NCBI GenBank assembly: GCA_965205485.1
Contig: OZ242180.1
Location: forward strand, 2,080,001-2,144,000
Direction: 5' to 3'
Origin: Candidatus Latescibacterota bacterium
GTDB lineage: Bacteria > Latescibacterota > UBA2968 > GCA-2709665
Length of the DNA: 64,000 nucleotides
The notes under the pieces were generated by a model. That model saw only the letters and a list, made by a program, of their open reading frames with translations, was not told the DNA's origin and did no database searches. Below, in pieces: positions 1-4,135 of the stretch; position 1 is the stretch's first letter; each line of letters starts with the position of its first letter. The translations under genes were made by a program, and so were the position numbers.

Positions 1-558
1 CCCGACAAGGTCTGCGCCCGCGTCCAGCGCAATACTCGCTTCCTCCCTGGTGTGTACTTCCACCAGGGCGTCCAGGTCCGACTCCCTGCAGACTGTGAGC
101 ATCTCCGGAAGTTCACGTTTCGAGAGCGCTGAGACAATCAGCAGAACCGCGGCCGCACCGATTGTCCTGGCTTCGTGGATCTGATACGGATCGATCACAA
201 AATCCTTGCGGAGCACCGGCAGTTGTACGGCTTCGCTTACGGCGCTCAGACTCGCGTCGGAGCCCTGGAAATACTTTTCGTCCGTAAGCACGGAAATTGC
301 CGCCGCGCCGTTCTTCTCGTAGGCCCGGCCGATTGCAACCGGATCGAAATCTTCCCTGATTACCCCTTTCGATGGAGATGCCTTTTTTATTTCCGCTATG
401 AGCGCGATATCCTCCGCGTCGGTCAGGCTTTTCGTCAGGGAGCCCGGCGCCCGCGTCTGGCCCGCCCTTTCCCACAAAACCCCGGGCGAGACCCGTTGTT
501 TTGCCTCGGCCACAACGCGCCGCTTGTATGCGATGATCTCATCCAGGATGGTAGCCAT
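1..558 (-). CDS. trpC: Indole-3-glycerol-phosphate synthase (3' end runs off window)
   Basis: Manual translation from ATG at 558: MATILDEIIAYK...IAEIKKASPSKG...ISVLTDEKYFQGS...LRKDFVIDPYQI; follows trpD. Confidence 0.95.
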   Translation of the reverse strand, partial: MATILDEIIAYKRRVVAEAKQRVSPGVLWERAGQTRAPGSLTKSLTDAEDIALIAEIKKASPSKGVIREDFDPVAIGRAYEKNGAAAISVLTDEKYFQGSDASLSAVSEAVQLPVLRKDFVIDPYQIHEARTIGAAAVLLIVSALSKRELPEMLTVCRESDLDALVEVHTREEASIALDAGADLVG

Positions 559-559
559 T

Positions 560-1573
560 TTATCCGTTCGAAACCAGTTTGAGTTCTTCCAGTTTATCCA
601 TTGCTCGCCCGGAATCCACGGCCTCTCTGGCCAGTTCCATAGCCGCTGGCAGATCATCCGCCGCGCCGCCCGCTGCAATCGCGGCTGCCGCGTTCAACAG
701 AACGATGTCAAGCCGCGGACCGGGCTCGCCGTGCAGCACCCTGCGCAGGATCGCCGCATTGGTCTCGGCGCTTCCTCCCGCCAGGTCGCCTGGCGACGCC
801 CTCGGGATGCCCAGCTCCTCGGGCGTGATTTCGTACGTGGAAACCGTCCCGTCGTTCAGCTCGCTCACCTGCGTCGGTCCGGTCGTGGTGATCTCATCAA
901 GTCCGTCCAGCCCGTGTACCACAAACGCACGTTCCGAATCCAGTGTTCGCAATACCTCCGCCAGCGTGTCGGTCAGAGACCGGCTGTATACCCCGATCAG
1001 GTGCCGGGTGGCGCCTGCCGGATTGGTCAGCGGCCCAAGGGCATTGAAGACCGTGCGCGCGCCAAGCTCGCGTCTGGGTCCGATCGCATACTTCATGGCG
1101 CCGTGCAAAGCCGGAGCAAACAGAAACCCGATGCCCGTCTCGTCCAGACACCGCCCCATCGTCTCCGGCGACGCTTCGATGTTCACCCCCAGTTCCTTCA
1201 GAACGTCGGCGCTTCCACAGAGGCTGGATGCGGCGCGGTTTCCGTGTTTGGCGACGCACAATCCGGCGCCGGCCACGACAAACGCCGCCGCCGTGGAGAT
1301 ATTGAACGTTCCGGAACCGTCTCCACCGGTACCGCATGTATCGACCACCGTCGCGTGCCGCGTGCCGACCCGCGAGGCCTTTTCCCTCATTACCTCGGCG
1401 GCGCCGGCGATCTCCTCCACTGTCTCGCCCTTGACCCGGAGAGCCACAAGGAAAGCGCCAATCTGCGCGTCCGTGGCCCCACCCGACATGATCTGGTTCA
1501 TCGCCCCGATCATCCGGTCGCGCGTCAGGTTCTCACCCTCAATCAGTTTCGCGATCGCATCCTTAATCGACAT
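560..1573 (-). CDS. trpD: Anthranilate phosphoribosyltransferase
   Basis: DTCGTGGDG, NISTAAAF, KHGNRAASS motifs; start moved to MSIKDAI. Confidence 0.96.
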   Translation of the reverse strand: MSIKDAIAKLIEGENLTRDRMIGAMNQIMSGGATDAQIGAFLVALRVKGETVEEIAGAAEVMREKASRVGTRHATVVDTCGTGGDGSGTFNISTAAAFVVAGAGLCVAKHGNRAASSLCGSADVLKELGVNIEASPETMGRCLDETGIGFLFAPALHGAMKYAIGPRRELGARTVFNALGPLTNPAGATRHLIGVYSRSLTDTLAEVLRTLDSERAFVVHGLDGLDEITTTGPTQVSELNDGTVSTYEITPEELGIPRASPGDLAGGSAETNAAILRRVLHGEPGPRLDIVLLNAAAAIAAGGAADDLPAAMELAREAVDSGRAMDKLEELKLVSNG

Positions 1574-1628
1574 AGCCGTCTCCCCATCATGCAAGCTGAG
1601 AATGGGACGGGTTTTCAATCCCTGGAGT

Positions 1629-2192
1629 TCAGCCTTCCAGAAAATTCCTCAACAACACTTTACCCTCGGCCGTCAATATGGACTCGGGATGAAACTGAAC
1701 GCCTTCAACCGGGTAATTCCTGTGCCGCAGACCCATGATTATACCATCGTCTGTCTGCGCGGACACTTCGAGGCAGTCCGGAAGGCTCCCCCTTTCGACC
1801 ATCAGCGAATGGTATCGCGTTGCGATGAAGGGATGGGACATATCACGGAAAATCGTACGTCCGTCGTGATGAATCTCGGACACCTTACCGTGAAGAATTG
1901 CCGGCGCCCTCACAACCTTGCCGCCAAAGGCCTGTCCGATGCACTGGTGCCCGAGACAGACACCCAGCATTGGAATCCGCCCGCTGAATCGCCGGATAAG
2001 ATCCACGGAGACACCCGCCTCGTTCGGTGTGCAGGGACCGGGCGAAATCACCACCTTCTCCGGCTGAGTTGCGTCGATCCGGTCAAGTTCGATCTGATCG
2101 TTCCGAAACACGTCCATCCGTGCGCCCAACTCGCCCAGATACTGGACCAGATTGTACGTGAACGAATCGTAATTGTCGATTACCAGGATCAT
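1629..2192 (-). CDS. trpG: Anthranilate synthase component II (glutamine amidotransferase)
   Basis: [27 protein letters not shown] motifs; lies between trpE and trpD. Confidence 0.93.
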
Positions 2193-2244
2193 GAGTCAAC
2201 CCGACAAAGTAGTTAAGAGTGGCAACGTACAATGCTGACGCTAA

Positions 2245-2343
2245 CAGTCCGTTGAGAAAGTCGCTCTGCAGGCGAGGCCGAGCAACGCAGTATTTCGACC
2301 GCAAGGGCCGGCCGTAGCCCGGTTGGGCTTTTTCAACGGGCTG
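2245..2343. mobile_element. MITE family A, internally deleted copy (99 bp)
   Basis: Terminal inverted repeats CAGTCCGTTGA...TCAACGGGCTG; flanks CTAA/CTAG; interior shared with copies at 14947, 36618 and 55359. Confidence 0.85.
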
Positions 2344-3834
2344 CTAGACCGCACCCTCCGCCAGTTCCACCGCCCTGAACAGCGCCTTCGCCTTGTTTAC
2401 GGTTTCCTGGTGCTCGTTTTCCGGTACGGAATCGAACACAATCCCACCGCCGGCCTGGACGTACGCTTTCCGTCCCTGCAGCACCATCGTACGTATGGCG
2501 ATGCACGTATCCATATTGCCCGAAAAATCTATATAACCCACGGCCCCCGAGTACGGCCCGCGGCGGGTCGGCTCCAGTTCGTCGATAATTTCCATCGCCC
2601 GAATCTTGGGCGCGCCGGAAACCGTACCTGCCGGATAACAGGCATACAGCGCATCCAGTGCATCCACGCCGTCCCTGAGGCGACCCCGAACGTTCGAGAC
2701 GATATGCATCACGTGAGAATAACGCTCAATTGCCATCTGTTCGGTCACACGTACGGTATCGTATCTGGATACCCGACCGACGTCGTTCCGGCCCAGGTCC
2801 AGCAGCATTATATGCTCCGCACGTTCCTTTTCGTCCGCCAGCAGGTCCGCCGCGAGGGTGGAATCCTCCTCCTCCGTAGCCCCTCTCCAGCGTGTGCCCG
2901 CAATGGGACGCACCTGCACGACGCCGTTCTCGACACGCACCAGCAGTTCCGGCGAGGCGCCTACGAGTTGCACGTCCATGAGGTCCAGATGAAACATGTA
3001 CGGCGACGGATTCACCGTGCGCAGCGCACGGTATATGTCCAGAGATCCCACGCTGATCTCGGTCTCGAAGCGCTGTGAGAGTACAACCTGGAAAATATCG
3101 CCCGCGACGATATATTCCTTGCAACGACGCACCTTGTCCAGAAAAACCGACCGTTCCGTGTTCGACCGGATTTCACTCGCCCGGTTGCCGGATGTTACCG
3201 CCGGGACGCCGTTGGCGGGAATCGGCCCCCGCAATGCCGTTTCCAGCGCATCGATTCGCGCTTCCGCCTCCCGGTAATTCTGCTCGATATCTCCCGAGGT
3301 ATGCACATTGGATATCAGATGGATCTTCTGCCTGACGTTGTCGAAGCCAAGTAGCGTATCGTAGAAGAGTAATACGACGTCCGGCAGACCGTGGTCGTCG
3401 CGCGTCCGGTCGGGGATGTTCTCAACCAGCCGGATCGCATCGTAGGCCACGTAACCCACGGCTCCGCCGGTAAACCGGGGCAGTCCCTCCAACTGCGCCG
3501 AACGGAATTTCCCCAGCAGACGCCTGAGCTCGGCGATGGGCGATCCCTCAAACGCCCTCACGCCGCCCCGCTTCAGATCCTCTATCTCAATCCGGGTTTT
3601 CCACGACCGAAAGGCAAGGAACGGCTCCACGCCCAGGAAGGAATAACGGCCGATCTTTTCGCCTCCTTCCACGCTTTCGAAAAGAAAGCTGTAGGGACTC
3701 CCGGACCGCACCTTCAAATAGGCGGAAACCGGGGTTTCGGTATCCCCCAGGATTTCGCGGGAGATTGGGACGATTCCCTGGCCCATGGCCAACGTTTTTG
3801 TCGTCTCCAAATCGGGTGTGTTCACGAATTTCAC
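2344..3834 (-). CDS. trpE: Anthranilate synthase component I (start approximate)
   Basis: LFESVEGGE..GRYSF, GDIFQVVLSQR, NPSPYMF, PIAGTR, GTVSGAPKIRAM motifs. Confidence 0.95.
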   Translation of the reverse strand: MKFVNTPDLETTKTLAMGQGIVPISREILGDTETPVSAYLKVRSGSPYSFLFESVEGGEKIGRYSFLGVEPFLAFRSWKTRIEIEDLKRGGVRAFEGSPIAELRRLLGKFRSAQLEGLPRFTGGAVGYVAYDAIRLVENIPDRTRDDHGLPDVVLLFYDTLLGFDNVRQKIHLISNVHTSGDIEQNYREAEARIDALETALRGPIPANGVPAVTSGNRASEIRSNTERSVFLDKVRRCKEYIVAGDIFQVVLSQRFETEISVGSLDIYRALRTVNPSPYMFHLDLMDVQLVGASPELLVRVENGVVQVRPIAGTRWRGATEEEDSTLAADLLADEKERAEHIMLLDLGRNDVGRVSRYDTVRVTEQMAIERYSHVMHIVSNVRGRLRDGVDALDALYACYPAGTVSGAPKIRAMEIIDELEPTRRGPYSGAVGYIDFSGNMDTCIAIRTMVLQGRKAYVQAGGGIVFDSVPENEHQETVNKAKALFRAVELAEGAV

Positions 3835-3894
3835 CAGGCAGTTGGCCGCTTGTGCCGCTATTTCGCGGTAATGGCGCCCTGAGTCGGCCGAATC

Positions 3895-3923
3895 AAAAAA
3901 AAACCGTGAGCAGATGCCCACGG
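3895..3923 (-). terminator. Attenuator terminator upstream of trpE
   Basis: Minus strand CCGTGGGC-ATCT-GCTCACGG followed by T9. Confidence 0.88.
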
Positions 3924-3948
3924 CCCGGTTTACGTCTTTTTCAGCAGT

Positions 3949-4056
3949 TTACTCGCGTGGGCAGACACAACGATCCGAGGCCTCCCGGTAATACCACCGG
4001 TAGGAGCGATAAAAATATCCACGCAAGGAAAACCCGTCTTGACCACGATCCGTCAC
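3949..4056 (-). CDS. Aromatic-rich leader peptide (35 aa) of the trp operon attenuator
   Basis: GGAGG 7 nt before GTG; MTDRGQDGFSLRGYFYRSYRWYYREASDRCVCPRE; 3' end overlaps the antiterminator segment. Confidence 0.75.
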   Translation of the reverse strand: MTDRGQDGFSLRGYFYRSYRWYYREASDRCVCPRE

Positions 4057-4135
4057 GATCAATCCTCCACAATCCAGTGTCCTGCCGGTTTCGAACCGGG
4101 CGACGGCAAGCAGCCGCTCCGACAGGAACGGTCTA

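Follow-up and report, generated by a model that had tools for sequence, protein, structure and literature searches.

A tyrosine-rich leader before trpE in Candidatus Latescibacterota: a candidate attenuator responding to tyrosine as well as tryptophan

Known attenuators of aromatic operons

Attenuation by a leader peptide is an established mechanism for Trp, Phe, His, Thr, Leu and the branched-chain amino acids, and includes multivalent forms such as thrL (Thr, Ile) and ilvL (Leu, Ile, Val). Like the element described here, these two combine in one leader the control codons of more than one end product of a branching pathway, albeit a different pathway. The E. coli trpL and Actinobacterial trp attenuators, which we take to be united in the Rfam family named Trp_leader, share with our element a leader before trpE, a ribosome-binding site (RBS), the set of helices and the terminator, as far as the accessible parts of their descriptions extend. 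Those parts give the trpL type a short leader with an RBS, alternative 1:2, 2:3 and 3:4 helices, a U-tract and a stop codon at segment 2 (PMC11802643, PMC1262725), and known trp leaders double or triple UGG codons (PMC1262725). In contrast, among 52 leaders from the order of the genome studied here, none has adjacent Trp codons (WW) and all have more Tyr than Trp codons. Further, unlike that of trpL, the operon includes tyrS, a chorismate mutase gene, aroF and tyrA, and the element has no Rfam match. The trpE leader probably works like trpL but falls outside the tandem-Trp leader family.

Tyrosine, in the accessible parts of the papers reached, is assigned to T-boxes. One of these papers treats the Streptomyces trpS2 and leuS attenuators and E. 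coli pheST, and places tyrosine under T-box control (PMC1262725); another treats the trpL, pheL and pheST leaders (PMC11802643); and the available portion of a third mentions neither tyrosine nor tyrS (PMC2965389). The one tested Tyr-containing leader in these portions, Corynebacterium glutamicum aroR (Phe-Tyr-Phe), precedes aroF; attenuation was shown, and it answers to Phe, with Tyr availability having no effect (Neshat et al. 2014, cited in PMC11802643). Like our element, aroR sets mixed aromatic codons before aromatic pathway genes, but it has a single Tyr codon, whereas the present leader has five with Trp, stands before trpE and has tyrS in its operon. Elsewhere, a Cys upstream ORF (uORFC-8-2) lies in front of Rhodobacterales cysS and a Phe upstream ORF in front of Acholeplasma aroF (PMC8632094, accessible part). 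The synthetase attenuators described in these portions (pheST, trpS2, leuS, cysS) carry codons cognate to their synthetase, as here, with none for tyrosine; what differs here is that the synthetase gene stands sixth in a biosynthetic operon, with which it has one leader in common. The literature searched yielded no aromatic multivalent attenuator for Trp and Tyr, no described Tyr-responsive leader attenuator (subscription comparative surveys and supplements, outside its scope, may list predicted ones) and nothing on this lineage. The mechanism proposed below is that of the textbooks, with a Tyr input that is absent from the papers searched.

Anatomy and conservation of the trpE leader

The window, by which we mean the whole 64,000-nucleotide stretch analysed, begins with trp genes on the minus strand: the 5' part of trpC (1-558), which runs past the window edge, trpD (560-1573), trpG (1629-2192) and trpE (2344-3825), which scores above the TIGR00564 cut-off and whose GTG start at 3825 was placed by comparison with relatives. 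Upstream on the same strand lies a leader ORF of 35 codons (4056-3949), opened by GTG (4056-4054), closed by TAA (3951-3949) and preceded, 7 nt 5' of the GTG, by the Shine-Dalgarno motif GGAGG (4068-4064), with similar sites in most congeners. Still further 5' is a putative promoter, TTGACA (4164-4159) and TAACGT (4141-4136) separated by 17 nt; it scores under the threshold of the promoter scanner, which found none at the leader, and in 87 of the 93 regions compared TTGAC stands 5' of the leader. The peptide has the 5 Tyr, 2 Phe and 1 Trp given in the first-pass annotation, together with 7 Arg, its aromatic block spans codons 14-23, and it has no Pfam hit. Five Tyr in 34 leader codons has a probability of 0.0017 against the operon's own genes; at least five occur in 27 of the genome's 33,425 start-to-stop frames of 30-40 codons, and at least eight aromatic residues in 148 of them. 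Among 78 strong terminators, 15 are directly preceded by an RBS-led short ORF, and the trpE leader is the most aromatic of these.

The RNA elements follow in order along the minus strand. Segment 1 (4019-4027, codons 11-13) pairs with segment 2 (3953-3963), which lies beneath the last codons and forms the 5' strand of the antiterminator; segment 3 (3915-3926) is both the 3' strand of the antiterminator and the 5' arm of the terminator; and segment 4 with the U9 tract (3895-3912) completes an intrinsic terminator of 11 pairs (3926-3901) between leader and trpE. The sequences first proposed for the first three segments, UUGCGUGG (4026-4019), UGCCCACGCGA (3963-3953) and CGUGGGCA (3922-3915), and the U9 tract (3903-3895) were correctly placed. 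Folded in isolation, the 1:2 helix joins 4027-4019 with 3960-3952, and the additional hairpin proposed at 3981-4004, over the codons Tyr19-Arg24, is recovered at -11.8 kcal/mol; it may be a pause hairpin.

For comparison, regions upstream of trpE were taken from four families of one Ca. Latescibacterota class: f1 (22/22) and f2 (31/31, 30 usable), which make up the order of the window genome and its 52 leaders, f3 (3/3), and the sister family f4 (39/76, 38 usable). All 93 usable regions have a leader and terminator before trpE, though the rate of terminator pairing is partly built in because the search pattern demanded it, and all 93 keep both the leader ORF and its aromatic codons, as the original proposal requires. 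Among the 41 nearest genomes the leader was found in 40; the sequence of the other, G036, begins too near trpE to judge. This bears on a highly improbable alternative, in which the terminator is a fixed one, belonging to a small RNA or to the SDR gene upstream, or control rests with a protein or a T-box, and the ORF is incidental. Such a reading could appeal to the fold of the whole region (3890-4130), which is no better than shuffles (z = -0.78), and to second promoter-like sites 3' of the terminator in 5/93 regions. Yet relatives have different genes upstream of the leader but retain the ORF with its RBS, frame and stop position; and nothing in Rfam, T-boxes included, matches the element at E up to 1, the only T-box-like match in the genome lying before pheS.

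The support for the fold is comparative. The single sequence alone is weak evidence: besides the z-score, shuffled versions of segment 2 pair equally well in 236/500 cases for 1:2 and 81/500 for 2:3, and the energies of cognate and non-cognate duplexes do not discriminate for 2:3. Segment 1 and its 1:2 pairing are present as proposed, but the segment is not fixed: most congeners have a 9-bp GCGUGGGUA helix there, other genera use other partner sequences, and the 1:2 helix is lineage-specific and, in 5 of the 8 genera represented, stands out poorly from shuffles. The core pairs of segment 2 are found in 91-93 of 93 regions, a range favoured by the family-specific motifs with which the segment was located. 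Within the order, 97.1% of terminator cells are paired, four pairs show two-sided change, and 0/500 shuffles do as well, a result inflated by relatedness among the genomes; the 2:3 antiterminator is conserved there with zero two-sided changes. Between orders, position 7 of segment 3 shifts between G-C and A-U pairing (20 genomes, with G-U intermediates) and position 9 between A-U and G-C (38/38), each matched in both segment 2 and segment 4. Moreover, genera differ in the reading frame, one of two, in which segment 2 is translated, so the segment is kept as RNA, not as peptide. This comparative evidence supports the proposed attenuator, whose leader overlaps two mutually exclusive helices, as one of the classical four-segment type, and, judged from sequence, the trpE leader is very probably a ribosome-mediated transcription attenuator of that kind.

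On the classical attenuation model, ample charged tRNAs would carry the ribosome to the stop codon, where it would cover segment 2 and let 3:4 form, with termination at U9; a ribosome stalled in codons 14-23 would leave segment 2 free to capture segment 3, allowing read-through into trpEGDCF-tyrS-trpBA and the chorismate mutase gene. The distances are consistent with this: in every family the stop codon lies a median of 10-11 nt past the segment-2 core, in f1 a distance of 26-28 nt separates the last Tyr codon from the start of that core, and in the computed geometry the ribosome covers segment 2 from the stop and uncovers it from the control codons. If the ribosome front is taken as 13 nt, the energy needed to free segment 3 is 3.0 kcal/mol for a ribosome on the stop codon, 5.4-8.4 for one on the aromatic codons and 5.5 when none is present, and the cost at aromatic codons exceeds that at the stop by more than 1 kcal/mol in 88/93 regions. 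In this genome the probability of 2:3 with a ribosome at Tyr14 is ~0.9 in one folding model and 0.2 in the other, and at Trp21 it is low in both; in many genomes the 1:2 helix is not dominant without a ribosome.

Given this dependence on the model, and because codons from about 7 to 28 all give similar results, folding cannot name the signal. The RNA switch itself would not be amino-acid specific, its specificity coming from codon content. This similarity of sequestration energy across codons 7-28 suits a general translation-rate or Arg sensor, in which a stall anywhere in that stretch would open the terminator and much of the signal would come from the seven Arg codons; Arg is also the commonest leader residue (17% over 39 distinct leaders; P 0.02 for its content in this genome), and argS belongs to the cluster in all four families. 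We nonetheless regard such a sensor as very unlikely. Arg content is similar in leaders of the Trp and Tyr types (median 5-6.5 in f1, f2 and f4), Arg residues also border the control codons in the leaders of stand-alone trpS and tyrS, and argS here follows a 645-nt gap with promoter-like sequence.

Leader codons and the synthetase in the operon

The contrast originally drawn, of a leader rich in Tyr and Phe rather than Trp, was overstated and is unsupported as worded: Trp is retained, with at least one Trp codon in 52/52 leaders of the order. In 15 congeners, 72 of the 75 codons at the five Tyr positions encode Tyr and the remaining 3 Phe, with synonymous changes at three of the positions. Among the leaders compared, the Tyr run is either YYY or YYYY, a difference of a whole codon. 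Trp is present at the two Trp positions in 13/15 and 10/15 of the congeners, and no genome lacks both; the window genome has lost the first, by TGG to TTG at codon 11, where 13/15 have Trp. It is quite likely that Tyr is a signal of the leader, and likely that Trp remains one. An attenuator that in practice senses Trp alone, its Tyr codons serving RNA structure (the 4004-3981 hairpin) or stalling the ribosome too briefly, is improbable. The universal retention of Trp in the order and the position of the WYYR codons within a conserved hairpin would fit it, and aroR, in the accessible part of its account, supplies a precedent for a Tyr codon without a Tyr response (PMC11802643). However, the leader has a single Trp, never WW, while the same genomes write WW or WWW before trpS; and the Tyr codons vary synonymously, their run changes by whole codons, and Tyr14 and Tyr16 lie outside the hairpin.

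Past the left edge of the window the cluster continues, in order, with trpF, tyrS, an HMGL-like aldolase gene, trpB, trpA, chorismate mutase, aroF and tyrA, followed by an aroA-like gene, aroE, ubiE, argS, aroK and aroB. The expectation of aro, tyr and phe genes beyond that edge is thereby borne out for aroF, tyrA and other aro genes, whereas pheA lies elsewhere; aroC and a full-scoring aroA are also outside the trp cluster. The gaps from trpE through tyrS are 151, 55, 1, 8 and 23 nt, and terminator-like sites inside the cluster are near chance (21 against 15.3 and 6 against 3.5). We infer co-transcription of trpEGDCF-tyrS-trpBA and chorismate mutase, probably on through aroF-tyrA and beyond. 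Allowing for insertions, and over as much of the cluster as each 20-kb region covers, 19 of 20 relatives share the gene order; in G034 it breaks after trpD.

Across the class, codon content appears to follow the aminoacyl-tRNA synthetase housed in the operon. With synthetase placement read by hand, tyrS is present in the 8 kb downstream of trpE in 48 of the 52 genomes of the order, whose leaders are the Tyr-dominated ones (in three it is on another contig and in one separated). In f4, trpS comes next after trpC and lies within 8 kb of trpE in 35/38 (two on other contigs, one separated), and its leaders have at least two Trp in 38/38, WW in 30/38 and more Tyr than Trp in 2/38; they are Tyr-poor though these operons hold chorismate mutase and tyrA. 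The two f3 genomes with tyrS inside have leaders of 4 Tyr and 1 Trp, and the f3 genome with neither synthetase inside, G041, has a WW leader. This pattern is not a replicated test, because in a TrpD tree of 38 genomes it amounts to one deep split and one further genome, G041. Individual departures also occur: the operon of G071 no longer contains trpS although its leader is still of the WW type, and G034, whose tyrS has moved away, keeps three Tyr. Taken as a whole, the leader is probably a classical attenuator responding to scarce charged tRNA-Tyr as well as tRNA-Trp.

The place of Phe is the weakest part of the proposed response to Tyr and Phe or to all aromatic amino acids, of which the Tyr part is independently backed by the presence of tyrS in the operon and by the synthetase-leader pattern. 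Since the operon includes DAHP synthase and chorismate mutase, a classical attenuator sensing Trp, Tyr and Phe about equally can be proposed; it differs from the reading in which Tyr joins Trp only in the weight of Phe. Every leader of the order has at least one Phe, with medians of 2 in f1 and 4 in f2 against 1 in f4, a family without a cluster DAHP synthase, and in the 15 congeners Phe15 is invariant and all three Tyr losses are to Phe. On the other hand, two Phe in 34 codons is not above the background of this genome (P 0.32), Phe9 varies among the same congeners, pheA is elsewhere, and pheS is preceded by a T-box-like leader of its own, whose specifier is UUC. We consider equal sensing of all three unlikely; Phe as a signal is possible, with slightly less than an even chance.

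Leaders of stand-alone synthetase genes and a possible dominance of Tyr

Synthetase genes outside the operon have leaders of their own. Stand-alone trpS in f1 is preceded by a leader with 2-3 Trp in 13/15 regions; that of this genome has WWW with a hairpin and T-run (G000:C1 ~1326565-1326700, plus strand; L189), as do 12/14 other f1 regions, the terminators having been called by eye in this genome and by script in the others. In f4, a leader with at least two Tyr and a terminator precedes stand-alone tyrS in 19/26 cases. These f4 tyrS leaders (L192, L195, L196, L212-L231), with pure Tyr runs, a GGGG segment 2 and a CCCC...GGGG terminator, are candidate tyrosine attenuators; at the one searched against Rfam, the only match was a sub-threshold Phe_leader (26.4 bits, E 0.78). 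No leader was seen at stand-alone trpB in five f4 genomes, at first-copy trpS in eight f2 genomes, or at f3 trpS or tyrS. The T-box-like element before pheS (RF00230, 80.3 bits, E 2e-17, under the gathering score of 93; G000:C1:4939692-4939987, minus strand; L252 3152-3447) precedes a gene of archaeal length (542 aa), and a T-box in this lineage is notable in itself. Separately, an RBS-led 35-codon ORF and terminator precede an ABC-transporter ATPase gene (G000:C1 ~4969966, minus strand), which may be a leader-controlled transporter.

In the window genome tyrS is single-copy; with amino-acid-specific sensors for each aromatic synthetase, the trpE leader is therefore the only candidate for tyrS. 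We somewhat favour the view that Tyr is its true and dominant input, and that the leader was re-tuned as the resident synthetase changed, with WW accompanying trpS and Tyr runs accompanying tyrS, while the synthetase outside keeps its own single-amino-acid leader. If so, leaders of pure Trp, pure Tyr and mixed type would all occur in the class, on or beside one homologous RNA scaffold, a natural set for asking how attenuators shift specificity and whether Tyr codons can drive attenuation. A tyrS-bearing operon with a Tyr-rich leader, mirrored by a trpS-bearing one with a Trp-rich leader, makes Tyr-driven attenuation, and shifts in attenuator specificity, directly testable with a 180-base reporter.

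Further observations on the gene cluster

Several features of the cluster deserve mention in their own right. Two promoter-like sites lie at the start of trpG (window 2151-2199, minus strand), where an internal promoter is possible; three were found against 1.4 expected in 1-3890. Many f4 genera (L169-L188) have a fused TrpEG-like gene of ~720 aa replacing trpE in place, with the leader kept and trpBA located elsewhere, leaderless in the five genomes checked. The operon-position tyrS of G015, G021, G042 and G043 (L044, L048, L142, L143) is only 28-35% identical to that of this genome, which suggests in-place replacement by another TyrRS subtype. The aroA-like gene of the cluster (G000:C1:2070543-2071847, minus strand) scores 131 bits against a cut-off of 287 and is much shorter in several relatives; with a full-scoring aroA at C1:712604-713827, it may be a degenerate or repurposed paralogue. 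Between it and aroE, a 46-aa membrane-type ORF with no Pfam hit (L052:9310-9450, minus strand) is conserved in most of the class. Finally, a palindromic repeat occurs in two copies with the same inverted ends, one in the gap between tyrS and the aldolase gene (G000:C1:2077660-2077750) and the other between chorismate mutase and aroF (2074100-2074380), and is likely a mobile REP-like insert because the same gaps are short in relatives.
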